The notes under the pieces are model-generated. The model made no database searches. It had not been told where the DNA came from and saw only the letters and a program-made list of their open reading frames with translations. A program made the position numbers and the translations under genes. Source: an uncultured Spirochaetaceae bacterium (GTDB lineage: Bacteria; Spirochaetota; Spirochaetia; SZUA-6; RPPD01). From it: a DNA stretch of 64,000 nucleotides. Positions within the stretch are counted from its first letter, which is position 1, and each line of letters opens with the position of its first letter. Positions 25,665 to 40,959 of the stretch are shown one piece after another. Location: positions 66 through 64,065 of the forward strand of contig CAZWKE010000015.1 in NCBI GenBank assembly GCA_964634205.1. The letters are read 5' to 3'.

Positions 25665-27197
25665 ATGAAAAAAAGGTTTTGCTTCGCGGGTGCTTTATTA
25701 TTGACCGGACTGTTTCTGTTGTCCGCTTGCGGGTCCGGGGTTATAAAATCCGACCTGGGGTCGCTCTCCTGTCTGCCCGACAACTATACATCGTTTATCT
25801 ATATCAAGAACTTTCCGCATATAAAGGATGTTTTTGAGAAGTCGGAGTTCGCCGCTAAACTGAAAGATAACTATGTCTATCGGGATTTAAAGTACAAATA
25901 CTCACAGAGTATGGACCTGTTTTTTGTCAAGCTGGACTTTGATCCCGAAGCGCTGTTGGAACGGGTGAACAAAGATCTGCTGATCGGCTTTACCCCCGGC
26001 AGCTTTTTTGTGGCTGCCTCCCTGGATTATCAGTCACAGCTTGTGTATGCGCTTTTCAACCTGCTGCCCGATACCTACATCCAAAAAAGCAGGATTATGG
26101 GGCAGGAGATCAGCAGCTTTGCCCGGAACGGAAGGCAGATCTATTTCAGCTTCCAGAACAATTATCTGGTGGTAGCCGGAGACCGCAATACCATGTCCGC
26201 CCTGCTGGATTCCGACAGAAACAAAGACGTAGAGGGCAATGCATTGATAAACTCCTGTACGGATGAAGATGTTTATTTTCGCACCTCAATGCCCAAGGAT
26301 TACAACCAGTTCGATCTGCTGCCGCAGCTGGGGAAAATCTCCGTCAGGCTTAACCTGGCCACCTTTCATGCCCGGCTTGAGGCGGAACCGAAAAGCCACA
26401 GCTCATTTACCAAACCGGAAGAGGATTACCAGTATTTCCGCTTTTTAAAGTACCTTCCCCCGGATTTTACCCTGTGTTATTTTAACCGGGAATACGAAAC
26501 GGCCGCGGTCCTGCGCCAAATCTTTTCCAACTATGCCGAAGACCCCACGTATGCCTACCGGGCCGAGGAAAACATAAAAGAACTCTCCGTATTCGACAAC
26601 TTCAGCGATGGAGCCGTGTTTGCCTTTAAGACCCTGGGCTACAACCGCGGAGGTTCGGATGTGGAGCCCGGATTTGCTTTTGCCCTGCAGTTAAAAAAGA
26701 AGGTCCCGTCCTCCGGCCTGCCGTCGATATACGCCTCGGTTTTCCGTGTATTCAATTTCCTGTTCGGGTTCAGCGGTTGGGACAAGCAGGCGGGAAAAAA
26801 CTACACGGTTTATACCTGCAGAGACAATGATTTCCATATCATTGTTGCGGATCGCTTTTTCATTCTCTGCAGCAGCAAGGACATAACCGGGGACATAACC
26901 CAAAGGATCGAATCCGCCCAGGCATCGTTGTACGATACCCTGTTCGGCCGGTTCAAATCAGTAAAACAGGACAACCTGGTCTATTACATGGGAATTAATA
27001 TGAACAGCCTGGTGTCCGAGGTGGAGCCGTTTTTCTCCGATTATATCCGCGGGCGCCTGGGGATGAACAGGGGAGAGTATAATCACAGTTTCGGGGAGTT
27101 CATCAGTTTTTTGAAAGGTCGCCGACCGCTTTACATAACACTATCCAAAACCACAGACAGGGGAATGTATACGGGTGAAGTTACGTTTGTCAAATAA
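25665..27197 (+). CDS. Hypothetical lipoprotein, first gene of the alpha-2-macroglobulin cluster (possibly YfaA/DUF2138-like)
   Basis: Signal plus lipobox MKKRFCFAGALLLTGLFLLSACGSG. 510 aa. Overlaps the next gene. Confidence 0.45.
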   Translation: MKKRFCFAGALLLTGLFLLSACGSGVIKSDLGSLSCLPDNYTSFIYIKNFPHIKDVFEKSEFAAKLKDNYVYRDLKYKYSQSMDLFFVKLDFDPEALLERVNKDLLIGFTPGSFFVAASLDYQSQLVYALFNLLPDTYIQKSRIMGQEISSFARNGRQIYFSFQNNYLVVAGDRNTMSALLDSDRNKDVEGNALINSCTDEDVYFRTSMPKDYNQFDLLPQLGKISVRLNLATFHARLEAEPKSHSSFTKPEEDYQYFRFLKYLPPDFTLCYFNREYETAAVLRQIFSNYAEDPTYAYRAEENIKELSVFDNFSDGAVFAFKTLGYNRGGSDVEPGFAFALQLKKKVPSSGLPSIYASVFRVFNFLFGFSGWDKQAGKNYTVYTCRDNDFHIIVADRFFILCSSKDITGDITQRIESAQASLYDTLFGRFKSVKQDNLVYYMGINMNSLVSEVEPFFSDYIRGRLGMNRGEYNHSFGEFISFLKGRRPLYITLSKTTDRGMYTGEVTFVK

Positions 27198-28224
27198 ACG
27201 GGGAGTGTTCATATCGCTTCTCATCCTGTTTTGTCTATGTATTGTCGCTGCCGCCGGGCTGTTTTTCTCCGCCCTTGCGGACAATGCATTGATTATAAAT
27301 ACAAACGAGCGGTCGCTTCCCGCGGACCGCGGTTCGACCTGTTTTTATGCCATCAGCTATGCCAATCCCCTGCGTGCATTGTTTTTCCCCTTTAACGGAA
27401 ATTATTCACTTGAGTTCGAACAGGGGGGCGGATTGGTAACGACCGTTAAAAAGCAAGGCGGCTTTTTTATCCAAAGTACGGGCCAAAGCGGTACCGTGGT
27501 ATTCAGCGTAAATGTCGCCGGATTCAGACAGGGTTTCAACCTGCGCATCGATACGGATACCGCGGATACGGACGGCGACGGTTTTCCGGACGCGGTGGAG
27601 CTGGATTCGCCGGCGGACCGGGAAAGTTTTCGCCGCTGGTTTGTCAGTATTGCCGAAAGTCAGTTCTACGCGCCCTCGTATTCCTGGTATGACATACACC
27701 GGGACTGCGCCGGGTTGGTGGTATTTTCCTTTAAAGAGGCGCTGAAAAAGCACGGGACGGACTGGTTGAAAAATTTTCCCTACCTGGTAAAACAGGATAT
27801 CCCGGATGTGCGGAAATATCACTACCCGCGGGTGCCGCTTTTGGGAGACCGGATCTTTCGTACCGCCGGGGGAGGGTTCGCGGCGGGGGATGTAAAAAAC
27901 GGCGGTTTTGCCCCGGTTGCCGACGTAAATACCCTGATAAACCACAACCTGACGTTTATCGGCAAAGACCCCGGAGACTTTGCGGCGGGTGATATTTTGT
28001 TTTTCCTGCACACCGACAACCCGGACATGCCCTTTCATTCCATGATTTATACGGGAAGGGACGGGTGGCTGGTGTACCATACCGGCCCGTTGGACGACAA
28101 GCCGGAGGGAGAGGTGAGAAAAGTACGCCTGACGGATTTGTTGCTTCATCCGGACAGGAGTTGGGCGCCCGTGGCGGACAATCCCTGTTTTTTGGGTGCG
28201 TTTCGCTGGAATATTTTAATGTAG
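27175..28224 (+). CDS. A2M-associated secreted protein, putatively DUF1175 (YfaT/MagE-like), with an Asp-rich TSP3-like calcium-binding repeat
   Basis: GTG start overlapping the upstream gene. N-terminal TM/signal. DTDTADTDGDGFPDAVELD repeat. Position immediately 5' of the A2M gene. Confidence 0.45.
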   Translation: MKLRLSNKRGVFISLLILFCLCIVAAAGLFFSALADNALIINTNERSLPADRGSTCFYAISYANPLRALFFPFNGNYSLEFEQGGGLVTTVKKQGGFFIQSTGQSGTVVFSVNVAGFRQGFNLRIDTDTADTDGDGFPDAVELDSPADRESFRRWFVSIAESQFYAPSYSWYDIHRDCAGLVVFSFKEALKKHGTDWLKNFPYLVKQDIPDVRKYHYPRVPLLGDRIFRTAGGGFAAGDVKNGGFAPVADVNTLINHNLTFIGKDPGDFAAGDILFFLHTDNPDMPFHSMIYTGRDGWLVYHTGPLDDKPEGEVRKVRLTDLLLHPDRSWAPVADNPCFLGAFRWNILM

Positions 28225-28246
28225 CGATCATTAAGGAGGAGAAAGT

Positions 28247-31200
28247 ATGTTTACACAGAAGAAAGCCGGATTTTTGCTTTGGGTACTGTGTGTGGGCTGT
28301 ATCTTGTTTTTTAGCGGAGGCCCGCTGTTCGGCGAGCGTCCCTTTTACCTTTCCACGGACAGAAGTTTTACTCCGGGTGAAGGCATAAAAATCAGGGTTG
28401 AGTCCGCCCGCATTTCCACCCTGAAGATCAGGGTCTATAAAATAAAGGACCCCACCCAGTACTTTCTGACCCAGGATAATATCCACCGCCCCAAGGTCCG
28501 GGGGAGGTCAATGCGCTACTTTGCCCCGGAGGTTTTCAGCGGATTTGAGGACCACCTGCGCGTCTCCCTGCGGCATTGGGCCAGGCGGACCATCCCGGCG
28601 CTTAATCGCGGCAAGATCATGGAAACATACCCTGAGTTTGCGCGTAAATCGCGCGAGGGGCATTATAATCCGGAAAAGACTGTTGATTATATCAATGACG
28701 AAAACTTCAGCCTGGCACGGGAAGAGGAGTGTGTGCTGGAGGAGCGCGGCCATGACCTGAATGTCAATTATGTGTTTCTGAACAGTCTCTTACCGGGTAC
28801 CTATCTGATCGAGGGGATAAACGGGAGAAATGTGGCGTACACGGTCCTTAATATCGCGGAGTTCGGTTTTATCGTGAAAAAGGCCGGGGAGGACTGCCTT
28901 GTCTACACCGTAAACAACAAAACCGCGGAACCGTTGGCGGGGGTGGAGCTGACCGTATACAACCGTTTTAACCGCAAGGTGGGACAGCTGCGTTCGGACA
29001 ATAACGGCCTGGCCCGGGCGCGTTTGGCCGAAAATGATATATTTATCGTCGGCCGCAGCCCGCGGGGTGAGTACGCGTTTTATGATCCCAATTATTTCCC
29101 CTCCACGCTGCGCGACAATAATGTGTATATGTACACCGAACGGCCGGTGTATCGCGGCGGTGATACGGTATATTTCAAGGGAATTTACAGAAATTATAAA
29201 CAGGGCGTGTACAGCGCAACCGGCGCCGGAGAGATCGGGATGACCGTTATCGACGGCCGGGGGAACCGGGTACAGACGTTCACCGTGAACTCGGACAACC
29301 TGGGTATTTTTTCCGGAGAGTTCGCCCTGCCCAAGGACGCGGTTTCCGGGCGTTATACCCTTCTGGCGCGCATCGACGGAAAAGAGTACGAGGCTGAGTT
29401 CAAGGTGGAGTATTATAAAAAGCCGGAGTTCAAGGTAGAGGTCACCACACCGGAATCCGCCTATATCGGCGGGGCCGAACTGACCGCGAACGTCAGCGGG
29501 CTGTATTATTTCGGGGAGCCCCTGGCCGGGGCAACCGTGCATTACTCGGTCTACCGAACACGCTTTGCGGATACCCAATGGATGAACGACCAGGCCGGCG
29601 GGTTCTATGTCAGTGAGCAGGAGTATGTATACTCCCGACCGGAGTTGATCGAAAGCCGGGATGCCAGGCTTGACGGGAAAGGAAAGCTTTCGCTTCAGAT
29701 TAAAACACGCCATGAAAATGATCCCTTTACCTACCGGATTGAGGCTGCGGTTGTTTCCGACACCGGAACCAGGGTAACCGGCAGCACCCTGGTCAAGGTA
29801 TACCCTGCCGCCGTGCGCCTGGGCATCTCAACCGATAAGTTTGTGTACCTGGTGCGTGAAAAAGTGAACATAGAGGTAAGGCTGGCGGACATAAAAGGCA
29901 TGCCGCTGGCGGGCAAGGTAAAGGTGACGGCCACCTCAGGAAACCAGGTGATAGGGGACGGCTCGGTCAACACCTCCGCCAAGGGCGGGGGAGTGTTCCG
30001 GTTTTCCGCACGCAGCACGGGATTTGTGAAGGTCCTGGCCCAGGCACAGGACAAGGACGGCAATACGGTAAAAAGTGAAAAATACCTCTGGATTGGAGAA
30101 GAAGGCGCGAGTTACCAGTACAGCGGCGGGCTTATCAAGCTGGTCCTTGATAAATCCTCATATAAAACGGGCGAGCGGGCAAAGCTGCTTGTTATTTCCC
30201 CGGTGCCGGAGGTCAAATTCCTGCTGACGGTGGAGGGTGATGACATCTACAGCCATGAGGTGAAAAAACTCAGCGGCAACAGCGCTTTAATCGAGATTCC
30301 GTTATATGAAAAGTATATTCCGAATGTGTTTGTCGACGTCAGTTTTATTTTTAACAATCGCTTTTACAACAACAGCATAAAGATCAGTATTCCGCCTGAA
30401 CAACGGTTTTTAAATATCGATATTAAGCCGGAGAAAAAGGTGTATGAACCCGGGCAGACCGGCAGTATGCTGATAACGGTTACGGACAACAAGAACCGCC
30501 CGGTGGCGGGGGCGGACCTTTCCCTGTCCGTGGTGGATGAAGCCATCTACGGCATCTCCAACGAAATCGCGGTTGATATCCGGAAGTTTTTCTATCCCTT
30601 CCGGCGCAACAATGTCATGACCTGGTCTTCCATCGGGTTCAGGTTTTACGGATATGCCATGGACGTGTACAGCGAGCTTGCCCAGCGGTTTTACCGGGAC
30701 CCGACGGGGCTGGCCGCCTTCAAAGGAGGAGAGGCGGAACGCAAGGATTTTAAGGATACAATACTGTGGATCCCCTCCCTGAAAACAGACAGCCGGGGGC
30801 AGGCACGTGCCGAGGTCAAGTTTCCGGACAACATCACCCAATGGCGGGCCACGGTAGTGGGAATTACCGGGGACACCCTCGTGGGCAGGGCAACCGGGAG
30901 TGTCATCACCAAACTTGATTTTTTCACCGATATTTCCCTGCCTTCGTACCTGGATGAGAAGGACCGGTTCTCCATTTATAATAGCGTATACAACTATACG
31001 GATAAAAGCCTCAAGACAACCCTGACCATGAAAGCGGACAAGGCGGTCATAGCCGAACCGCTGCAGACCGTTACCGTGGAACCGCACAGCAGCACGCTGG
31101 TGCAATGGGACCTCACCGCCGCGGGACTGGGTGAGGCAAGCTTTACGCTGCAGGCCAATGCCGGCCGTTACAAGGACACCATCACCAAAAAAGTGACCAT

Positions 31201-32809
31201 CATCCCGCATTCCATTATGAAGGCTATCAATGTCAATGCCAAACTGGACAATCGGCACAACTCCATGAAATTTAGGATTCCGGAGAAGATGAAAAAGGGA
31301 AGTCAGACCCTGGAGGTAAACGTTTCCTATGGGTACGCTTCGGTTATCCTGGAATCGCTGGATTACCTTATAATGTATCCCTACGGCTGTGTTGAGCAGA
31401 CCACCAGCAGTTTTCTACCCAACCTGGTGGCGGTGAATGCCCTGAACAAAACCGGGCTGCATAATCCCCGTTACGAAAACCAGCTTGCCAAGAACATAGA
31501 ACACGGCCTGGCCAAGCTGTACGGGTTCCAGCTGCAGGACGGTTCCTGGGGTTGGTTCGGCGGAGGCGACAAAAACCTGTTTATGACCGCGTATGTGCTG
31601 TATGCCCTGACCCTTACCGGAAACCTGGGGTATGAGGTGGATACCGGCGTGTTGTCCCGTGGGCTTACCGCCCTGGGGAACAGGCTGGGAAATGCGCGCA
31701 ATGATACGGAAAAGGTGTACGCGCTTTATGTCCTGAGCCTGAACGCAAAAAAATATGAAAGCGTCTACTCCAGCCTGAAGAGCAGGGAAAAGGATTTGAA
31801 TCCCTACAGCCTGGCGCTGCTTGCCCTGACCGCGCTGAATTACAACAAAACCGCGGACGCACTGGACCTTGTGGGCCGGCTGAAGTACCAGGTAAAAAAG
31901 GACTCTGCCGGGAAGCTGGTGTACTGGGGAGACAGCCGCACAACCTCCTGGTATAAGGATGATGTGGAAACAACCGCCTGGGTACTGCGCGCCCTGATCA
32001 AAGTGGACCCCCGTGCGGACCTGATTCCCAGGGCCGTGGACTGGCTGTTTTTTCACAAGGACGGCAGCCGGTGGAAGTCTACGCGTGATACGGCGGCGGC
32101 AATTTTTGCCCTGTCCGATCTGCTTGCGGCCCGGGGTGAAAAAGAAAAGCAGGCCGGGTTTGACCTGAAGGTGAATAACACAAAACTGGGCAGGATCGAG
32201 TATACAAAAAACAGCTTTACCACCATGAAGCGTTTTTCGGCCGCGGAACTTGAGGGTGTCTTGCGCAAAGAGAACACGCTTTCCATTGAGGGGATCAACT
32301 CCGACCAGCCCCTGCTTGTCTCGCTTTCTTTTTCCTATTACACGGACGACAACCTGATTGCCGCGGATTCATCGGGCATCCGGATTACCCGGACATATTA
32401 TGAACTGAAGGAGAACCGCTCGTATTCGGGCAAAATAGAGTATGCCAAGGGCGAGGTGCTTTCAAGCTTTGAGACCGGTAAGAACGTCCTGGTGGAAATC
32501 GAGTTCGGATTAAACAACCGGGAGGATTATGTACTGATAGAGGATTATTTCCCCTCGGGCTGTACTCCGGTTAAGGACTTTAAACTGTCGTCAATCAGGG
32601 GATACTCCAATTCGGGACGGCCGGACTATGTTGATTTCCGTGATGACAAGGTAGCGTTCTTTTATTCGCGGGCCGGTTCTCATAAAATTTATTATGTGCT
32701 GCGTCCGGTGTTTGAGGGATCGTATGAGGTGATGCCCGCAACGGCTTCATTGATGTACTTTCCGTCTGTCAGGGGAAACTCCACCGACAGCCATGTTTCA
32801 ATTAAATAG
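28247..32809 (+). CDS. Alpha-2-macroglobulin family protein with intact thioester motif (bacterial A2M, 1520 aa)
   Basis: AAGGAGGA RBS. Signal peptide. Length and domain order typical of bacterial A2M. Thioester pentapeptide GCVEQ at about nt 31385-31399, with the characteristic downstream YALY/WGW region. Confidence 0.85.
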   Translation: MFTQKKAGFLLWVLCVGCILFFSGGPLFGERPFYLSTDRSFTPGEGIKIRVESARISTLKIRVYKIKDPTQYFLTQDNIHRPKVRGRSMRYFAPEVFSGFEDHLRVSLRHWARRTIPALNRGKIMETYPEFARKSREGHYNPEKTVDYINDENFSLAREEECVLEERGHDLNVNYVFLNSLLPGTYLIEGINGRNVAYTVLNIAEFGFIVKKAGEDCLVYTVNNKTAEPLAGVELTVYNRFNRKVGQLRSDNNGLARARLAENDIFIVGRSPRGEYAFYDPNYFPSTLRDNNVYMYTERPVYRGGDTVYFKGIYRNYKQGVYSATGAGEIGMTVIDGRGNRVQTFTVNSDNLGIFSGEFALPKDAVSGRYTLLARIDGKEYEAEFKVEYYKKPEFKVEVTTPESAYIGGAELTANVSGLYYFGEPLAGATVHYSVYRTRFADTQWMNDQAGGFYVSEQEYVYSRPELIESRDARLDGKGKLSLQIKTRHENDPFTYRIEAAVVSDTGTRVTGSTLVKVYPAAVRLGISTDKFVYLVREKVNIEVRLADIKGMPLAGKVKVTATSGNQVIGDGSVNTSAKGGGVFRFSARSTGFVKVLAQAQDKDGNTVKSEKYLWIGEEGASYQYSGGLIKLVLDKSSYKTGERAKLLVISPVPEVKFLLTVEGDDIYSHEVKKLSGNSALIEIPLYEKYIPNVFVDVSFIFNNRFYNNSIKISIPPEQRFLNIDIKPEKKVYEPGQTGSMLITVTDNKNRPVAGADLSLSVVDEAIYGISNEIAVDIRKFFYPFRRNNVMTWSSIGFRFYGYAMDVYSELAQRFYRDPTGLAAFKGGEAERKDFKDTILWIPSLKTDSRGQARAEVKFPDNITQWRATVVGITGDTLVGRATGSVITKLDFFTDISLPSYLDEKDRFSIYNSVYNYTDKSLKTTLTMKADKAVIAEPLQTVTVEPHSSTLVQWDLTAAGLGEASFTLQANAGRYKDTITKKVTIIPHSIMKAINVNAKLDNRHNSMKFRIPEKMKKGSQTLEVNVSYGYASVILESLDYLIMYPYGCVEQTTSSFLPNLVAVNALNKTGLHNPRYENQLAKNIEHGLAKLYGFQLQDGSWGWFGGGDKNLFMTAYVLYALTLTGNLGYEVDTGVLSRGLTALGNRLGNARNDTEKVYALYVLSLNAKKYESVYSSLKSREKDLNPYSLALLALTALNYNKTADALDLVGRLKYQVKKDSAGKLVYWGDSRTTSWYKDDVETTAWVLRALIKVDPRADLIPRAVDWLFFHKDGSRWKSTRDTAAAIFALSDLLAARGEKEKQAGFDLKVNNTKLGRIEYTKNSFTTMKRFSAAELEGVLRKENTLSIEGINSDQPLLVSLSFSYYTDDNLIAADSSGIRITRTYYELKENRSYSGKIEYAKGEVLSSFETGKNVLVEIEFGLNNREDYVLIEDYFPSGCTPVKDFKLSSIRGYSNSGRPDYVDFRDDKVAFFYSRAGSHKIYYVLRPVFEGSYEVMPATASLMYFPSVRGNSTDSHVSIK

Positions 32810-32821
32810 AAGGGGGCGGAT

Positions 32822-33496
32822 ATGAAGAAGATATGTTTGGGGTTGTTTTTACTGCTGTTTGCCGGGACCGTGACGTTGTGTGCCGATTATCTCCGTATTC
32901 TTTCACCGCGCGGCGGTTGGACCGATCAGCGCGTAATTACCATTTCCGGAGAGACGGACGCCCATGTGGACGCGGTCCGGGTGGTGTACAACAGTATTCC
33001 CCTGCGGCTGCCCGTACGAAGCGGGAGGTTCAGCCGCAATTTCGTCACCGCCCCGGGGCTGAACTCCATTTACGCGGAGGCCGAGTTCAAGGGGAAGGTA
33101 CTCTCGGATAATGTGTCCTTTTACGCGGAGGTACCCTCGAAGGCCATGAAGATCGTGATTATGTGGGACACGGACAAGACCGATGTGGATCTGCATGTGA
33201 AGGAGCCCACCGGTGAAGAGTGCTATTACGCCAATCCCCATACCAAGATCGGCGGGGCCCTGGATGTCGATATTACCACGGGGTACGGCCCCGAGGTGTA
33301 TACCCTGGCTTCGGCCACCAAGGGTACGTACAAGATCAGCGTTTACTACTACTCGGACCGCGGCAATCCCCAGACCCAGGTCAAGGTCTATGTGGTGCTG
33401 TATGAAGGCACTCCGAACGAGCGTATTCAGGAGTTCGAGACCATGCTGACCAAGACCGGGGTGGAAGTATATATCGATGCGGTCACGCTTGAATAA
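32822..33496 (+). CDS. Secreted protein, putatively DUF2135 (YfaP/MagA-like) A2M accessory protein
   Basis: Signal peptide. Conserved-looking block IVIMWDTDKTDVDLHVKEPTGEECYYANP...GGALDVDITTGYGPEVY. Confidence 0.45.
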   Translation: MKKICLGLFLLLFAGTVTLCADYLRILSPRGGWTDQRVITISGETDAHVDAVRVVYNSIPLRLPVRSGRFSRNFVTAPGLNSIYAEAEFKGKVLSDNVSFYAEVPSKAMKIVIMWDTDKTDVDLHVKEPTGEECYYANPHTKIGGALDVDITTGYGPEVYTLASATKGTYKISVYYYSDRGNPQTQVKVYVVLYEGTPNERIQEFETMLTKTGVEVYIDAVTLE

Positions 33497-34238
33497 GAAA
33501 GCACGCACGGCCTTACCCCTGCTCTTGCTGGGCCTGGTGCTTGCGGTGTCGCTTACGGGAGGTTCGTTTTCACGGGGGCGGTTTTATCTTCATGGAGACG
33601 GGTTTAGCGCGGATGAGGCCGGCCTGGTTATGGACACCCTGGAAAATGCGGAGCGGTTGTTAAGCGGTATCTATAATTATATTCCTGCTGAAAATCTGGA
33701 CATTATTGTGTTGTCCGGGGTATGGGAAATGAAAACTTCGTTTGGTGTAGGCCCCTGGGTGGGGGCGTATTATACCGGCTTTAAAACCTACCTGCAGCCC
33801 ATAGCGACCCTGAAAAAGCGCGAAGTACTTGCCAGGGTCCTGTTTATTGAGTACGCCCATTACTATCTGGACTCTTACACAAATCGGACCTGTCCGGCCT
33901 GGTTTAATGAGCTGTGCTCGTATTACCTTTTTCGCCTGTATACCGGTGCCCCGCCGGTTCCGGCCGCGCCGGCGGCCGGAGTTTCCTTCAGGCGCTATGC
34001 TGATTTTATCGATCTCTCCGCGAACATGAGGGATTATGACCGGCTGGAGTCATTTTACTATTACGCGGTGCGCTTTGTGCTGTTCTTACAGGAACGGCAC
34101 AGGCTGAACGCCTGCCTGGACCTGGTAAAAGCCATGCACCGCGGCATCTCGTTCAAGGATGCGGTAACACAGGCCGCGGGAAAATCCCCGGCCCGGTTGT
34201 TTGAAGAGGAGTTTTTGGCATGGCCCGCGGCAAAATAA
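33477..34238 (+). CDS. Hypothetical secreted protein in the A2M cluster
   Basis: 253 aa. Signal peptide MRSRLNKKARTALPLLLLGLVLAVS. Overlaps both neighbours. Confidence 0.45.
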   Translation: MRSRLNKKARTALPLLLLGLVLAVSLTGGSFSRGRFYLHGDGFSADEAGLVMDTLENAERLLSGIYNYIPAENLDIIVLSGVWEMKTSFGVGPWVGAYYTGFKTYLQPIATLKKREVLARVLFIEYAHYYLDSYTNRTCPAWFNELCSYYLFRLYTGAPPVPAAPAAGVSFRRYADFIDLSANMRDYDRLESFYYYAVRFVLFLQERHRLNACLDLVKAMHRGISFKDAVTQAAGKSPARLFEEEFLAWPAAK

Positions 34239-35185
34239 GCCCCGGCCTGCGTGCCGTAGTGCTGCTGGGGATGGCCTGCCTGGGATTTTTCGGACCGGAT
34301 GCCGTGGGGGCAAAGCGGGCAGCTGCCGAAAACAATACCGCCAGCAGTATGAGCGCGGTCTTACGGGACCTGGAGCGGCGCTATGGTGAGTTCGGCTGTA
34401 TTATCACCAATCCGCAGACCGGTGAGGTCCTGCTGATCTATAATGAGCCGCTGATTTCGCGCCGGCCCCTGTGCCCCGGATCACTGCTGAAGCCGTTCGG
34501 CCTGTTGGCCCTGGCCCGGTCCGCCTCCGTAGACCCGAAAACGGAAATTGTCTGTAAGGGCAAAACCCGGGGCGAGATCTCCTGCTGGCTGCAGGAAGGC
34601 CACGGCAGGATCAATCTGACCCAGGCCCTGGCCTATTCATGTAATTATTATTTTTATTATTTTTTTAAAGACCGCCTGCAAAAAGACGACTATGCATGGG
34701 TTCTTAAAAGTTTCGGCCTGCCCCCACTGCCCGGAATAACGGGTATGAGTAAGCAGGATTTTTATAAGGCGGCGGTCGGCCTTGACAGCGAATTGATGAT
34801 CACCCCCTTGCAGATGATCTATGCCTATAATGCGTTGTTCAACGGCGGAAAACTTTTCAATCCGGGGGGTGAGCGGACCCGCAGGATTTACGTTCCCGAT
34901 GACGTGCGGGACATCCTTGCCGGGGGAATGCGCGAATGCGCCCTCTACGGCACGGGAAAAAAAATCTATAAAAACAACCCGGGGATGGATATAATCATAA
35001 AAACCGGTACCGGGGCCAGCGTGAACATGGGAACCGAGGTATGGTATAAAAAGACCCGCTGGGTGGTGGTCCTGTCTCCGGGGCTTGATCCGGTATTCAG
35101 TATGCTGGTGGTCATGGAAAAGAAGGAATCGGAGGATATCCATGAGCTGACGATCGAACTGCTGCGTCAGCTTACCACCCGCTAA
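34220..35185 (+). CDS. Penicillin-binding-protein transpeptidase / class-D beta-lactamase-fold protein (standalone, secreted)
   Basis: SxxK (PGSLLKPF), SxN (YSCN) and KTG (IIKTGTG) motifs in the correct order and spacing. Signal peptide. Confidence 0.6.
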   Translation: MARGKISPGLRAVVLLGMACLGFFGPDAVGAKRAAAENNTASSMSAVLRDLERRYGEFGCIITNPQTGEVLLIYNEPLISRRPLCPGSLLKPFGLLALARSASVDPKTEIVCKGKTRGEISCWLQEGHGRINLTQALAYSCNYYFYYFFKDRLQKDDYAWVLKSFGLPPLPGITGMSKQDFYKAAVGLDSELMITPLQMIYAYNALFNGGKLFNPGGERTRRIYVPDDVRDILAGGMRECALYGTGKKIYKNNPGMDIIIKTGTGASVNMGTEVWYKKTRWVVVLSPGLDPVFSMLVVMEKKESEDIHELTIELLRQLTTR

Positions 35186-35223: not shown

Positions 35224-36432
35224 TTGAGGAGTAAAAGGGTGCGCAGGATTTTTTTTCTGCTTGTTATGATAGGGACTGTTTGTGGAGTATCCGCCCAGGA
35301 CGGGTCCGACCTGGCCCGGGTGAATCTCAGCGGCTATGCCTATGTCCCTGAGTTTACGCTGACCTTTTCCCCGGGCTCACGCATAAACATCGACGGACGG
35401 CGGGTCTCCATGAGAAGCTGCCGCATTCTGCCCGCGCAAAAATCGCTGGTTACCGAAAAAAGCGGGCGCCTGATCTTTGAGCTGGTAACTATTCGACCCG
35501 CCAACGGTGATGTCACCGGGTTTACCACCCCGGTGGGTACGCAGCAGTTCAGGGGGCGTATTGAAATAAGGGCCGCCGATGAGGGGATTCTCATCATCAA
35601 CACCCTGCCCGTGCGGGACTACCTGGCTTCCGTACTGGGCGGTGAGATGGGAGAGAACTTCCGGGACGAGGCGCTGAAGGCCCAGGCCGTGGCCATCCGC
35701 AGTTACTACTACGCCAAGCGGCGGCTGAACCGGCGGCAGGCTTTTGATGTCAGTAATACCGACGGAGTGGACATGGTCTACCGCGGCAGCGGATTTGCCA
35801 CTGATAAAATGTATGAGATCATGAAACAGACCGCGGGCCTGTTTTTGGTCGGTCCGGACGAAAGGCCCGCCCTGGCCCTGTTCCATTCCACTTCGGGCGG
35901 CCTGATTCTCAAGGACAAGGTGTTTACCTCTGATTTTTACAACCCGCCGCAGGAGCCCGTGCTCCGCAAAGACACGGACGAAAAAGGCCGTCCCCTGGCC
36001 TCCTCTTCCCCGTACTTCACCTTTGACATTACCTTAAGCGGGGAGCAGTTGATCCGCGCGCTGTACCCGGTGGTCCGGCTCTCCCGGCTTACGGACATCA
36101 GGCTGCGCTATTTCCCGGGCACCGCATGTGTGGATTTTATCGGCCTGATCGACCAGGACGGCAATACCCACTGGATAAAGGGCTTCAACTTTGTTTCGCT
36201 GGTACAGCAGCATATTACCCTGGGCCTGGGGTCCATCGATTTCAGCGTACAGAAACAGGGGGGCCGTTTTCGCTTTACCGGCAGGGGATTCGGCCACCAA
36301 TGCGGTATGAGCCAGTACAGCGCGGAAAAACTGGCACAGGGTGGGTACGGCTTCAAACAGATTTTACGGCGCTATTACCCGCAGTATAAGCTGGTAGCTA
36401 TTCCGGCGGCTTCCGCACTGCTGCGCAAATAA
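35224..36432 (+). CDS. SpoIID/LytB-domain protein (peptidoglycan lytic enzyme / amidase activator family)
   Basis: EALKAQAVAIRSYYY, FHSTSGG and GRGFGHQCGMSQYSAEKLAQGG are hallmark SpoIID motifs. Signal peptide. Confidence 0.75.
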   Translation: MRSKRVRRIFFLLVMIGTVCGVSAQDGSDLARVNLSGYAYVPEFTLTFSPGSRINIDGRRVSMRSCRILPAQKSLVTEKSGRLIFELVTIRPANGDVTGFTTPVGTQQFRGRIEIRAADEGILIINTLPVRDYLASVLGGEMGENFRDEALKAQAVAIRSYYYAKRRLNRRQAFDVSNTDGVDMVYRGSGFATDKMYEIMKQTAGLFLVGPDERPALALFHSTSGGLILKDKVFTSDFYNPPQEPVLRKDTDEKGRPLASSSPYFTFDITLSGEQLIRALYPVVRLSRLTDIRLRYFPGTACVDFIGLIDQDGNTHWIKGFNFVSLVQQHITLGLGSIDFSVQKQGGRFRFTGRGFGHQCGMSQYSAEKLAQGGYGFKQILRRYYPQYKLVAIPAASALLRK

Positions 36433-36507: not shown

Positions 36508-37059
36508 ATGAAACAATATTTATTGGCGTTTTTTTTTGCAAGTCTTCTTATCGTGGGAGCGTGCAGCTCCGCCAAGGAAAATACTTCGGTGACGGCACAG
36601 GCGACCGAGAGTAAGGGGGATCCCGATATGAGTAAAGCCGCGTTAAAGCAAAGGCTTACGCCTTTGCAGTACCATGTCACACAAGAAAACGGCACGGAAC
36701 GGCCCTTTATCAACAGGTACTGGAATAATGATGAACCCGGTATTTATGTGGATATTGTGTCCGGCGAGCCGCTGTTCAGTTCCCTGGACAAGTTCCATTC
36801 CGGTACGGGGTGGCCCAGCTTTACCAAGCCCCTGGTACCGGGCAATATCGTAGAGAAAACCGATTCCAGCAGTTTTATGGTCCGTACCGAGGTACGCAGT
36901 AAGCACGCCGATTCACATTTGGGACACGTATTCGATGACGGGCCGGCGCCCACGGGCCTGCGCTACTGTATAAACTCCGCGGCCCTGCGCTTTATTCCGG
37001 CGGCCGACCTGGAGAAAGAGGGCTACGGACAGTTTGCCAAGCTGTTTGCGAAGAAGTAA
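36508..37059 (+). CDS. msrB: Peptide-methionine (R)-S-oxide reductase MsrB, lipoprotein form
   Basis: Lipobox [24 protein letters not shown] and RYCINSAAL are the SelR catalytic motifs. Confidence 0.85.
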
Positions 37060-37065
37060 GGTCTG

Positions 37066-38454
37066 TTAAAACTCGGCGCTGGTGTAGGCCCGGGGAAAGG
37101 GAATGACATCGCGGATGTTCTGCATGCCCGTGATGAACTGTACCAGGCGTTCCAGGCCCAGGCCGAACCCCGAGTGGGGAACCGAGCCGTATTTACGCAG
37201 CTCCAGGTACCACCAGTAGTCCTTTTCGTTCAGTCCGAGCTCCCGGAGCCGCGCCAGTAGTCTGTTATAGTCCGCCTCACGCTCACTGCCCCCGATGATT
37301 TCTCCGATCTTGGGAACCAACACGTCCATGGCACGAACGGTTTTGTTGTCCTGGTTAATTTTCATGTAAAAGGCTTTTATCTCTTTGGGGTAATCGGTGA
37401 TGATTACGGGATTGTTATAAACCTGCTCGGTCAGGTACTTTTCGTGCTCGGACTGCAGGTCTATGCCCCACTTTACGGGAAACTCGAAATCCACGCCGGC
37501 CTTTTCCAGCTCGGTTACGGCTTGTGTATAGGTAATACGGGTGAAGGTGGAGTTCACGATGTTTTCCAGGGTCTCCAGGCGTCCTTTCTCAATCCATTTG
37601 TTGAAGAACTCCATGTCGGGCGCGCACTGTTTCAGCACGGAGGAAATGATGTATTTCAAAAACTCCTCGGCCGTGTCCATGTTCAGGTTGATGTCGCAGA
37701 AGGCCATCTCCGGCTCCACCATCCAAAACTCGGCCAGGTGCCGGCTTGTCAGTGAGTGCTCGGCGCGAAAGGTGGGGCCGAAGGTGTAGATGTTCCCCAG
37801 GGCACAGGCGTAGATCTCGCCCTCAAGCTGTCCGCTGACCGTGAGGTAGGTCTTTTTGCCGAAAAAATCCTTGCTGAAATCCACGTTCCCGGCCTCAAGC
37901 GGCGGTTTTTCCATGGGCAGGGTGGTAACCTGGAACATCCGGCCCGCGCCCTCACAGTCGCTGGCAGTGATGATGGGGGTGTGGATATATAAAAAACCGC
38001 GCTCCTGAAAAAAACGGTGAATGGCGAAGCTTAAGGCGTTCCTGACCCTGGTTACGGCGCCGAAGGTGTTGGTGCGCGGCCGCAGGTGGGCGATCTCGCG
38101 CAGGTACTCAAAGGAATGGTGCTTCTTCTGCAGGGGGTACTCATCGGCCGGGGACCTGCCCAGCATGGTGATACTTTCCGCGGCCAGCTCCATGTCCTGT
38201 TTGCCTCCGGGGGAAGCCTTGAGTGTGCCCCGGGCCTCGATACCGGCGCCCGTGGTCAGGTCGGGTATCAGCCGGGCCAGGGCGGGATTTGATTTATCGA
38301 TAAACACCTGCAGGTTGGTAATGATCGAACCGTCGTTAAGCTCAATAAAGCAGAAGCTCTTGGAATCCCGTGAAGTGCGGATCCAGCCGTACACCCGCAG
38401 GTCGGTATTAAGCGGCTTTTGGTCCAGGATGTCTTTGATGCGCATGGTCTGCAT
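37066..38454 (-). CDS. asnS: Asparagine--tRNA ligase
   Basis: 462 aa. N-terminal OB anticodon-binding domain. Class II motifs FRAEHSLTSRHLAEFWMVEPE and GFGLGLERL. Confidence 0.9.
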   Translation of the reverse strand: MQTMRIKDILDQKPLNTDLRVYGWIRTSRDSKSFCFIELNDGSIITNLQVFIDKSNPALARLIPDLTTGAGIEARGTLKASPGGKQDMELAAESITMLGRSPADEYPLQKKHHSFEYLREIAHLRPRTNTFGAVTRVRNALSFAIHRFFQERGFLYIHTPIITASDCEGAGRMFQVTTLPMEKPPLEAGNVDFSKDFFGKKTYLTVSGQLEGEIYACALGNIYTFGPTFRAEHSLTSRHLAEFWMVEPEMAFCDINLNMDTAEEFLKYIISSVLKQCAPDMEFFNKWIEKGRLETLENIVNSTFTRITYTQAVTELEKAGVDFEFPVKWGIDLQSEHEKYLTEQVYNNPVIITDYPKEIKAFYMKINQDNKTVRAMDVLVPKIGEIIGGSEREADYNRLLARLRELGLNEKDYWWYLELRKYGSVPHSGFGLGLERLVQFITGMQNIRDVIPFPRAYTSAEF

Positions 38455-38466
38455 GGCTGTTCCTCC

Positions 38467-39702
38467 TTAAAACAGGTACAGCGGGTGCGAGTCAGGGTTC
38501 TTGCCGAAAAAAGTGATGTCGTCAACCTTGCCTACTTTTTCCCCGCGCAGCAGGGCGAACAGGGTTCGTTCCACCCCGATGCCGCCGCCCATGGTTTCCG
38601 GGAACAGCGGGCTGCCGTCCTCGTCCTTTAAAGAAGTAAAATATAGAAAAGGCCCATACCCGCCCAGGCTTTCGATGTTTTCGATATTCCCGTCTTTTAT
38701 CACCGGTCTCACTCCGAGTACGCGATTGTCCAGAATCCTCTCTACAATGGGCTCAAACAGCCACTCACGGATGGCGCCCGAGAGGATCTCCCTGGCCGGA
38801 GTCTGTTTTCCCGTTTTGGCGTTAATGCTTTTGGCAATAATATCGAAGTTAAAGATGGAAGACGAGTCTACCTTGGCGAGGTCTATTGTACTCCCGTCCT
38901 CGAACAAATACGGAAATACCAGATCATAGTTTTCCCGGAACAGGCCCGTGATCCAGAAGAACTGGGAGGGGGTCTCCCGGCCGCAGTGCTCCTCATATGC
39001 TTTAGCCCCGTACTTTTGCACGCTCTTGTCCTTGGCAAAGCGGGGAAAGGGTATCTGCGGTACCTCCACGGCGATCCCCAGGTTTTTCAGATTTTCCGCG
39101 CACTTTGTAACCAGTGCCTCCATGGCGGCGGCCAGCATGCGCTCAAAAAAGTTAATCACCCGGTCAAAATCCTCGCGCAGAATTCCGGTGACCATCTTCG
39201 GTTTGTGGTAGTAATCTTCCAACGTTACGTACCGGTTGCGGCGCAGCTCCACGTCTATCTGAGAAAAGTCCGCCAAATACTTGCCCCTCTGGATGTTGTT
39301 GGGGCTTTCCAGCTCCAGCCTGATGTTGGGGGAGTCCACGTAGATGCCTTTGATCTTTTTATTGGCGCAGGCCATGAACTTGCTGTAGATCATGCTGTGT
39401 GTGGTAACATAGGTGTGTCCCTTGTAGGCAATTGTCGGCGTGTGTTCGATGTCATGTGCCAGGGGATCGGTAAGGATACTGAGCATGACCTTTTCGATGT
39501 TATGCAGCCCCTCGGCCGCCAAAAAATCCGTGCATGCCTGTACCAGCGCTGTGCGTACGGCCATAACATGGTACATCTCGTCCGAGATCCATTTTTTGCA
39601 GTAGTTCCGGCGGATAAACTCTTCCAGGCTGCTGCCTTCCTGTTTTAGCGCCGCCTGAAAGTTGCCCAGGCTCTGTCCGATGGTTTTCATACTGTCTTCC
39701 AT
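38467..39702 (-). CDS. Class II aminoacyl-tRNA-synthetase-like catalytic-domain protein lacking an anticodon-binding domain (AsnRS paralogue; AsnA-type asparagine synthetase or amino-acid ligase candidate)
   Basis: 411 aa. Motif 2-like IRLELESPNNIQRGKYLADFSQIDVEL. Motif 3 GGGIGVERTLFALL. No OB fold. Lies 13 nt from asnS on the same strand. Confidence 0.6.
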   Translation of the reverse strand: MEDSMKTIGQSLGNFQAALKQEGSSLEEFIRRNYCKKWISDEMYHVMAVRTALVQACTDFLAAEGLHNIEKVMLSILTDPLAHDIEHTPTIAYKGHTYVTTHSMIYSKFMACANKKIKGIYVDSPNIRLELESPNNIQRGKYLADFSQIDVELRRNRYVTLEDYYHKPKMVTGILREDFDRVINFFERMLAAAMEALVTKCAENLKNLGIAVEVPQIPFPRFAKDKSVQKYGAKAYEEHCGRETPSQFFWITGLFRENYDLVFPYLFEDGSTIDLAKVDSSSIFNFDIIAKSINAKTGKQTPAREILSGAIREWLFEPIVERILDNRVLGVRPVIKDGNIENIESLGGYGPFLYFTSLKDEDGSPLFPETMGGGIGVERTLFALLRGEKVGKVDDITFFGKNPDSHPLYLF

Positions 39703-39969
39703 AACGGCCTGCTCCTATTTCGGTTATAAATTTATCAATAATTTATTCTCCTGAAAGGAGATATAAGAAAAAAAATCACAAGCTTCGCAGCACTACATAA
39801 GAATTACCATAGAACACGGGGAAAGTCAAATAATAAAAAAGCGGCCGCTGTTTTTTCATAACGTATGATACCTTTTACCGTAAAATTTGTTTTAATTAAT
39901 GCAACAAAATGGGCGGCGATACATCATAAAAGGAGAGTGCCGGTAACTTCGGTCTTGAAGGAGTAATTT

Positions 39970-40959
39970 ATGTTGGATAAACAAACCCATTATACAATAG
40001 AAGAATTAAAGGCGCTGTTGAATTATTATATTGATAACAACGGTGCAATTCTGGGTAAAACATACTTCAAAAAGCATTTGTACAAAGGAAACAAACTGCT
40101 TCCACCGGGGATGGACAGCATCGGCCGGTTTTTGAATGATTTTGTGTATAATTGACGGAAACCCCGGCATGAGGGAATTTGGTTTGGCGATTCGGCCCGA
40201 ACTGGTATATAATTACCTATTACGGAACTGCAGAAATACACCGTTTTTGGGGGAAAACAGTCTGAAGATATCGTTAAAAATATACAGAGCCTCCGTACGG
40301 ATGTACTGCCGGCAAAGAATAATTTTATCGAGATCACCCCGGCCGATCCCCTGCGGCCCGGCAGCCGTTATATGGTGCGTTTTAATTACACGGACGGCAG
40401 CATCAGTTACAACTTTTTTACCGCGCCCTTAAACCCGGCCGAAACCGTAATCGGAGGCTTTGTCGGGAAGTTGCGCCGCAGTTTCGACCTGCGCGATCCT
40501 GATTTTGACGTGCGGGCGGCGCTAAAACTGGGGAAGAAAAAAGGGGAGCTGGAGGTGAAAAAAATCCGCGGGCAAAAGGTGGTGCTTGATAAAAAGTACT
40601 GCTTTTCCGTGGCCGTGCCCGAGGGCCGGGAGGTCGGCATGCAGAGGGACTGGCAGGAGATTCTTCTGAAGAGATCCTACTCCAGCATCAGCCTGTTTTT
40701 ATACGCCAAGGGCCGTGAGGACACCGCGCAGACCGTGATGCGGAACCTCGGCAAAAATGTCAAATACAAGCTGCTGGGGAAGACCGTGGTACACGGCAGC
40801 GAACTAAATGGCTATCGGGCGGAGTACGCATGGAAATACGACAATAAGGTGATTCATTACTATTGTGTTTTCGGGGATTATGCCCTGGGTATCTACGGGT
40901 ACGGGGTTACGGACGCCGAGATGCGCCGGGTATTCGAATCGTTTAAACGTACCGATTAA
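39970..40959 (+). pseudogene. Possible disrupted gene: a 61-aa ORF (39970-40155) and a 195-aa ORF (40372-40959) share a frame, separated by TGA and TAA stops
   Basis: Both ORFs are in frame 1. Sense-looking translation continues through 40213-40371 with no canonical start before the ATG at 40372. AT-rich context. Confidence 0.3.

Follow-up and report, generated by a model that had tools for sequence, protein, structure and literature searches.

The locus examined here raises the question of what a class II aminoacyl-tRNA synthetase-like protein that lacks an anticodon-binding domain is doing immediately beside asnS, the gene for asparaginyl-tRNA synthetase (AsnRS). It lies in a stretch of 64,000 nucleotides from an uncultured Spirochaetaceae bacterium (contig CAZWKE010000015.1), the whole of which we call the 64-kb window, and we refer to the gene as X:

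38467..39702, minus strand: gene X, 411 amino acids (aa), ATG start; an anticodon-domain-less class II aminoacyl-tRNA synthetase-like protein, predicted to be a long bacterial form of AS-AR

AS-AR denotes the archaeal-type, AsnRS-like asparagine synthetase A. A sequence-only reading had described this 411-aa open reading frame (ORF), which is present as described, on the minus strand and with an ATG start; it had offered as identities for the product an archaeal-type AsnA derived from AsnRS, a PoxA-type ligase, or a newly duplicated and diverging synthetase. The first of these options is the one we favour: the product of X is probably an aspartate-ammonia ligase, an asparagine synthetase that depends on ammonia and not on tRNA, and represents a longer bacterial version of the AS-AR type. 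The case for it is made by family placement, active-site residues, genomic contexts related to asparagine and ammonia, the equal divergence of X and its neighbouring AsnRS, and the literature. Homology, placement in the AS-AR clade, residue conservation, operon structure and genomic contexts were all observed directly, and from these we infer the substrates and chemistry of X.

X is a real gene, since 1008 homologs are detectable and the best 120 of these are 63–100% identical to it. Almost all of these 120 have a length of exactly 411 aa; they derive almost entirely from metagenome-assembled genomes (MAGs) of Spirochaetota, and carry annotations such as 'hypothetical protein', 'amino acid--tRNA ligase-related protein' and 'aspartyl/asparaginyl-tRNA synthetase'. 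The one Pfam domain of X is a weakly scoring class II (D/K/N) core (PF00152, 27.9 bits, residues 33–253); the OB anticodon domain (PF01336) gives no match. In the AlphaFold2 model (mean pLDDT 78.6, pTM 0.82) residues 1–63 contain helices only and none of the beta strands that make up an OB fold, and thus the lack of an N-terminal OB fold that had been claimed for this protein is borne out by domain search and model alike.

Among NCBIfam models the top match of X is archaeal-type asparagine synthetase A (NF005054, 121.7 bits). The same model is best for the most divergent members of the X family (102–147 bits), two of which, P0124 and P0126, span its full length; X and these divergent members barely match any model of AsnRS or of aspartyl-tRNA synthetase (AspRS). 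A profile search of 1.84 billion cluster representatives at 50% identity returned 157 matches, approximately six of them full-length X-family clusters, while the next tier consists of ~300-aa proteins, those tested scoring 300–395 bits on the NCBIfam models of archaeal-type 'asparagine synthetase A', at or above their cut-offs. Two of the X-family representatives (P0121 and P0128) contain internal frameshifted stretches that are probably assembly errors, so the apparent diversity of the family is inflated.

Comparison with AsnRS, AspRS and AS-AR, which the sequence-only reading had named as the way to place the protein, puts X within AS-AR. In profile-profile comparison (hhalign) X aligns to bona fide AS-AR over residues 32–408 with E = 3.9e-54 and 29% identity, compared to E = 2.8e-5 for AspRS and E = 0.004 with ~19% identity for the AsnRS family to which the product of the neighbouring asnS belongs; AS-AR and AsnRS themselves align with E = 6e-43, and the match of X to E. 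coli-type AsnA is limited to 30 columns around motif 3 (E = 0.0018). A bootstrapped neighbour-joining tree (309 columns) recovers X as monophyletic (100/100) and groups it with AS-AR (99/100), AS-AR being paraphyletic with respect to X. The best hits of the X sequence in the Protein Data Bank (PDB) are 1NNH and 3P8T, and Foldseek matches the X model to archaeal AspRS (1B8A), Pyrococcus AS-AR (3REU, 3RL6, 3P8T and 1NNH; 21% identity, template modelling score 0.69 normalised to target) and AsnRS (probability 1.0). The profile matches, the nesting in the tree and the Foldseek results together make X a derived subfamily within the lineage of AsnRS-like asparagine synthetases.

Other architectures were seen among the relatives of X. 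The nearest short-form relatives in the tree, P0222 (L090/L091:749-1681) and P0202 (L089), are 310–320 aa long and already have a GRY motif; the genes on either side of that for P0222 encode SNase and ubiquitin-hydrolase (UCH) proteins, a hint of a eukaryote-like or giant-virus origin. P0223 (443 aa) passes the cut-off of NF005052 'asparagine synthetase A' (391 vs 368 bits) and aligns to the model of non-discriminating AspRS (ND-AspRS) from residue 17, so that it seems to retain an N-terminal region resembling the anticodon domain, while P0185 (417 aa) is an AS-AR with ~110 aa of additional N-terminal region. Each of these last two could represent another architectural variant of AS-AR, or else a conflict of annotation within that family.

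Is the active site of such a protein likely to be functional, and for which substrate? We compared 40 sequences of the X family, whose alignment has a mean column identity of 78%, and tabulated residues across four families (X, AS-AR, AsnRS and AspRS). The two class II motifs of X align with those of archaeal AsnA, AsnRS and AspRS:

39247..39321, minus strand: motif 2, codons 128–152 (R128-L-E130 ... K141-Y142-L-A-D145-F146-S-Q148-I-D150-V-E152), from conservation and family alignments

38566..38589, minus strand: motif 3, codons 372–379, GGGIGVER, with R379 as the motif 3 arginine, from conservation and alignments

The arginines of motifs 2 and 3 that had been claimed for X, R128 and R379, are kept on alignment and are invariant in all 40 homologs, as are E130, F146, Q148, D150, E152, G372–G374, G376 and E378. 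D287, E305, G309 and R312 are also invariant, so that the class II residues for ATP, magnesium and adenylate are all retained; R312 is common to all four families. X shares D79 (in TDPL), M104, I105, Q148, R256-E257, D260, N285 and S308 with AS-AR alone, and the signatures of the aspartate pocket that are conserved in AS-AR do not vary in X (D79-P-L, S103-M-I, K108, Q148, D150, E152, S308-G309, R312 and E313). K108 aligns with the conserved lysine of AS-AR and AspRS, a position at which AsnRS has glycine. We take K108 and R312 to correspond to Lys198 and Arg489 of E. coli AspRS, which hold the side-chain carboxylate of aspartate; the roles given to residues of AS-AR rest on alignment and general knowledge of AspRS. 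The loop of motif 2 is longer than in AS-AR and has the X-specific residues R139, Y142 and D145. The active site of X thus looks competent and aspartate-binding, with a somewhat remodelled motif 2 loop.

X is ~117 residues longer than AS-AR (411 aa vs ~294–320 aa), owing to an N-terminal helix and internal insertions:

39610..39702, minus strand: N-terminal helical extension, codons 1–31, absent from archaeal AS-AR (conservation, model and alignment)

39175..39237, minus strand: insertion 1 relative to AS-AR, codons 156–176 (alignment)

38809..38910, minus strand: insertion 2 relative to AS-AR, codons 265–298, in segments 265–284 and 290–298 (alignment)

38668..38715, minus strand: insertion 3 relative to AS-AR, codons 330–345 (alignment)

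A further insertion relative to AS-AR comprises residues 359–364. The sequence-only reading had called the protein atypical for its size and for some 60 additional N-terminal residues; it is indeed larger than AsnA, but the N-terminal extension amounts to ~31 aa (residue 32 of X pairs with residue 18 of AS-AR), the rest being internal insertions. Within the extension E2, K6, I8, F15, Q16, A18, G23 and I30 are invariant, and the helix and insertions possibly serve in oligomerisation, regulation or the binding of a partner.

The arrangement of X with its neighbour bears on what the product would be used for. The features of the locus are as follows:

37066..38454, minus strand: asnS, canonical AsnRS of 462 aa with OB anticodon domain and class II core (Pfam, NCBIfam)

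38455..38466, minus strand: junction of X and asnS, 12 nt, TAA-GGAGGAACAGCC-ATG, with a Shine-Dalgarno sequence for asnS right after the stop codon of X

39712..39715, minus strand: ribosome-binding site of X, GGAG, 9 nt upstream of the ATG

39801..39829, minus strand: candidate sigma-70-type promoter, TTGACT, a 17-nt spacer containing TG, and TAATTC (sequence and alignment of relatives)

The neighbour had been called a genuine asnS on the same strand, and with both Pfam domains and 632–672 bits on the NCBIfam asnS equivalogs, above their cut-offs, this is what it is; the gap between the genes, given previously as 13 nt, counts to 12. Because the Shine-Dalgarno sequence for asnS follows directly on the stop codon of X and the 12-nt junction holds no terminator, the two genes are predicted to make up one operon, with joint transcription and coupled translation. 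Of the sequence upstream of X, an alignment with close relatives (loci L005, L006, L007 and L009) shows conservation of the candidate promoter alone. An Rfam scan at gathering thresholds yielded just two tRNAs in the whole window and hence no regulatory RNA upstream of X, and a permissive scan of 39600–40100 gave a single chance miRNA match. The sole small upstream ORF, judged by eye, has no run of asparagine codons that would indicate an attenuator. Divergent from X, at 39970–40155 on the plus strand, lies an ORF of 61 aa that has a good Shine-Dalgarno site and matches no family; gene calling on a short, independent contig (L085:1217-1402) picks it out as well.

If X works as characterised AS-AR does, ATP-Mg and L-aspartate would bind in its class II active site and react to form an aspartyl-adenylate, which ammonia would attack to give L-asparagine, AMP and pyrophosphate. 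Transcribed with asnS from the candidate sigma-70-type promoter at 39829–39801, X would supply asparagine that the neighbouring AsnRS uses to charge tRNA-Asn; co-transcription and translational linkage of the two genes argue for such use by the enzyme encoded next door. Known genomes that encode the ammonia-dependent AsnA use AsnRS (PMC2330236), and an asparagine synthetase and asnS form a co-regulated pair in L. bulgaricus, going by a title cited in PMC3412718; the operon of X and asnS matches the former rule and, as far as that title goes, the latter pair. The use of AspRS- or AsnRS-like cores as asparagine synthetases has been reviewed (PMC9437257). Our literature searches found no description of a long bacterial form of AS-AR.

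How general is this arrangement? We scanned one genome per species, which gave 250 stretches encoding X, and examined the best 80 (57–91% identity). The carriers belong to Spirochaetota, Thermodesulfobacteriota and other lineages labelled 'Deltaproteobacteria', Cloacimonadota (including complete chromosomes of 1.5 Mb), Planctomycetota and Fibrobacterota, and identity across phyla is 57–61%. Among the sequences that encode X are the complete Cloacimonadota chromosomes OY762943.1 and OY762940.1 and a Spirochaetota contig of 4.8 Mb (CAVSFD010000002.1). We define the spirochaete clade as the loci with at least 63% identity to X, of which 44 are informative and non-redundant, the window included. 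In 36 of these 44, asnS lies downstream of X on the same strand at a distance of 9–459 nt, and within the clade X and the adjacent AsnRS diverge equally (~66% vs ~67% identity). Outside the clade asnS adjoins X in just one of 36 loci. AsnRS was seen to co-occur with X in those 36 spirochaete-clade loci, the window among them, while three others (L031, L039 and L040) show GatCAB and ND-AspRS instead.

In other phyla X often lies near genes of nitrogen assimilation. Such genes occur in 18 of the 33 loci, within three genes of X in 16, and encode Amt, PII, glutamine synthetase (GS-I or GS-III), glutamate synthase (GOGAT; GltB/GltD), glutamate dehydrogenase (GDH), NrpR, GlnD or GAF-ANTAR proteins. 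The usual orders outside the spirochaetes are amt-glnB-GS-X-gltB-gltD, X-nrpR-gdh, or GS-I directly upstream of X, with GS-X-GltB a frequent core. Within the spirochaete clade, two loci have X beside Amt and PII, one of them with GS-III as well. Sigma-54 boxes of the -24/-12 type (e.g. TGGCACAATGGTTGCT) lie 67–123 nt upstream of X in L051, L074, L077 and L080, ~4-fold over background, and when all X loci are scanned these four good cases all fall outside the clade of the window; this suggests NtrC-type nitrogen control of X in those four non-spirochaete loci and not in the window's clade. No NrpR operator (GGAA-N6-TTCC) was found upstream of X in any locus. One divergent family member lies among genes for thrA-like aspartokinase/homoserine dehydrogenase, thrB and thrC. 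In the case of P0126 (420 aa), the most divergent full-length member, a gene of the type I asparaginase family (TIGR00519, 285 bits; also resembling GatD, ~240 bits) is directly downstream (L087:3347-5775 and L088:216-2644), and could be either a catabolic neighbour or an ammonia-donor subunit. Except for asnS, no neighbour family of X recurs in more than 16 loci.

Four spirochaete-clade loci have X beside two unusual fusion genes, one a 963-aa fusion of GatA (TIGR00132, 554 bits) with ND-AspRS (NF003483, 536 bits), the other a 590-aa GatC-GatB fusion. These were located at L012:6244-9135 (minus strand) and at L031:4374-6146 (minus strand) with a neighbouring ORF of ~963 aa, and also in L039 and L040; they are divergent from X in L031, L039 and L040, and two and three ORFs upstream of X in L012. 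Together they look like a transamidosome whose parts are covalently fused, present in some MAGs of Spirochaetota, and a literature search found no published description of a GatA-AspRS fusion.

Several observations weigh against a plain ammonia-dependent asparagine synthetase. X reaches only 121.7 bits where the curated AsnA cut-off is 309 (models NF005052/53/54/55), and its identity to AS-AR is only ~27–29%. Relative to AS-AR it has the invariant changes R139, D145, N258 and H102, and Y142 replaces the class IIb histidine, the two nearest short-form relatives already having tyrosine; the ~117 extra residues are strictly conserved. In L031, L039 and L040, X lies beside genes of the tRNA-dependent asparagine pathway with no asnS in view, and if these genomes lack AsnRS, a synthetase of free asparagine would be hard to explain there. 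At L078:571-4350, GS-I is followed by X and then by a 660-aa glutamine-hydrolysing asparagine synthase (TIGR01536, 516 bits), the only fetched locus in which X and an AsnB-family gene are adjacent, which means that X does not always fill a gap in the pathway. A tblastn search with E. coli AsnA and AsnB across 1.44 Mb of loci plus the window found no AsnA and this one AsnB, too little sequence being covered for pathway complementarity to be judged. Finally, the carriers among the best 80 are all uncultured MAGs or single-amplified genomes.

One alternative is that X keeps AS-AR-like adenylation, with its insertions and motif 2 loop serving a new nucleophile, amide donor or product, an obligatory complex, or regulation. 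The invariant residues R139, D145, N258, H102 and W314 (the last also specific to X) and the strictly conserved additional residues would fit such a change, as would the unusually high conservation across phyla and the distance of X below the AsnA cut-offs. The possible partners include AsnRS or PII-type nitrogen sensors, PII genes being near X in several loci, and a glutaminase that would deliver ammonia, given the asparaginase- or GatD-like gene behind P0126. However, every ATP- and aspartate-binding residue shared by AS-AR is retained in X; the asparaginase neighbour occurs in one lineage only; and no partner gene is universally linked, the most recurrent, asnS, being so in a single clade. 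We regard a new function as unlikely, and give the same low probability to the more specific proposal that X is no plain AsnA but an enzyme which its N-terminal helix, insertions and altered motif 2 loop (R139, Y142, D145, N258) make coupled to nitrogen status or dependent on a partner, whether fed ammonia by an amidase, docked to AsnRS so as to channel asparagine, or using some other acceptor.

It is very unlikely that X is a non-catalytic, HisZ-like regulatory or structural paralog, acting as a partner subunit of AsnRS or as a sensor of aspartate, asparagine or ATP in nitrogen control. The operon with asnS, the nitrogen-regulator genes near X in other phyla and the strong conservation across the surface of the protein are what such a role would predict, but all class II catalytic residues are invariant across ~70 sequences, which is unexpected for a purely regulatory paralog, and the linkage to asnS is absent outside one clade. 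A very low probability attaches to a PoxA/EpmA-like ligase or amino acid:carrier-protein ligase that would load an acceptor protein with an activated amino acid: the general architecture of a class II core without anticodon domain is common to both, yet X matches no EpmA/GenX model (TIGR00462, NF006828) at E ≤ 1, nests in AS-AR and outside the LysRS and SerRS lineages with a core of the class IIb Asp/Asn type, and has neither EF-P, EpmB nor a carrier protein among its recurrent annotated neighbour families, on which grounds we reject both the carrier-protein ligase and the PoxA-type option. That X is a recent asnS duplicate, now without an anticodon domain and in decay or divergence, for which its same-strand adjacency to asnS would speak, can be dismissed, since it is nearer to AS-AR than to AsnRS both in hhalign and in the tree and belongs to an old, length-invariant and highly conserved family found in ~250 species of at least five phyla.

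Local BLAST of the whole 64-kb window revealed neither genes of nitrogen assimilation nor gatCAB or aspS, and lookup of the window's own X protein gave only a 3-kb duplicate contig as a source of context. Neighbours of X and asnS in the window encode alpha-2-macroglobulin, penicillin-binding protein, SpoIID, MsrB and a likely zinc ABC transporter. Unrelated to X, positions 27175–35185 hold clustered genes for DUF1175, a bacterial alpha-2-macroglobulin of 1520 aa, a DUF2135 protein and a penicillin-binding-protein transpeptidase; the likewise unrelated SpoIID (35224–36432) and MsrB (36508–37059) genes come next.

The X subfamily is thus a well-conserved and unnamed bacterial branch without a curated model, of an AS-AR kind that is already known. 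If X is an ammonia-dependent asparagine synthetase, then the asparagine of ~250 uncultured species, spread over at least five phyla, would come from an enzyme that is labelled 'hypothetical' or synthetase-like; metabolic reconstructions would wrongly call these MAGs asparagine auxotrophs or count a second AsnRS, and a curated hidden Markov model for the subfamily would mend the annotation. The AsnRS-derived asparagine synthetases, structurally characterised so far in Pyrococcus, would then include a distinct, longer form in bacteria, linked either with asnS or with an Amt-PII-GS-GOGAT nitrogen-assimilation operon, and there would be one more example of an amino acid whose biosynthesis arose from its own synthetase. 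Were X instead to have a new function, it would be a functionally new class II synthetase paralog in bacterial GS-GOGAT operons. These findings matter chiefly for annotating uncultured lineages and reconstructing their metabolism, and for the evolution of amino-acid biosynthesis derived from synthetases.

Among known systems, EpmA (PoxA/GenX), the LysRS-like ligase that lysylates EF-P, is like X a class II paralog without an anticodon domain, but is of a different lineage. AsnRS and X have in common the class IIb core fold and the arginines of motifs 2 and 3; in contrast to AsnRS, X has no OB domain and no match to asnS models, and Lys108, as in AspRS and AS-AR, stands where AsnRS has glycine. 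E. coli-type AsnA, which is AspRS-like (PF03590), catalyses the reaction predicted for X and similarly represents a class II core recruited for ammonia-dependent asparagine synthesis (PMC9437257), but X has no match to Pfam AsnA at E ≤ 1 and matches PDB 4LNS with E = 0.8 only; the lineages are independent. The closest parallel is AS-AR of Pyrococcus (PDB 1NNH and 3P8T/3REU/3RL6; NCBIfam NF005052–NF005055), which shares with X the class II core without anticodon domain, the signatures TDPL, SMIxxK, SPNIRLE, F.Q.D.E, RE.YD, N.D, E..SG..RE, GxGIGxER and a terminal F.K.P, and presumably the reaction Asp + NH3 + ATP -> Asn. While AS-AR is compact (~290–320 aa) and its solved or named members are archaeal, X has 411 aa with an N-terminal helix and insertions, is bacterial, and is found in asnS operons or nitrogen-assimilation clusters.

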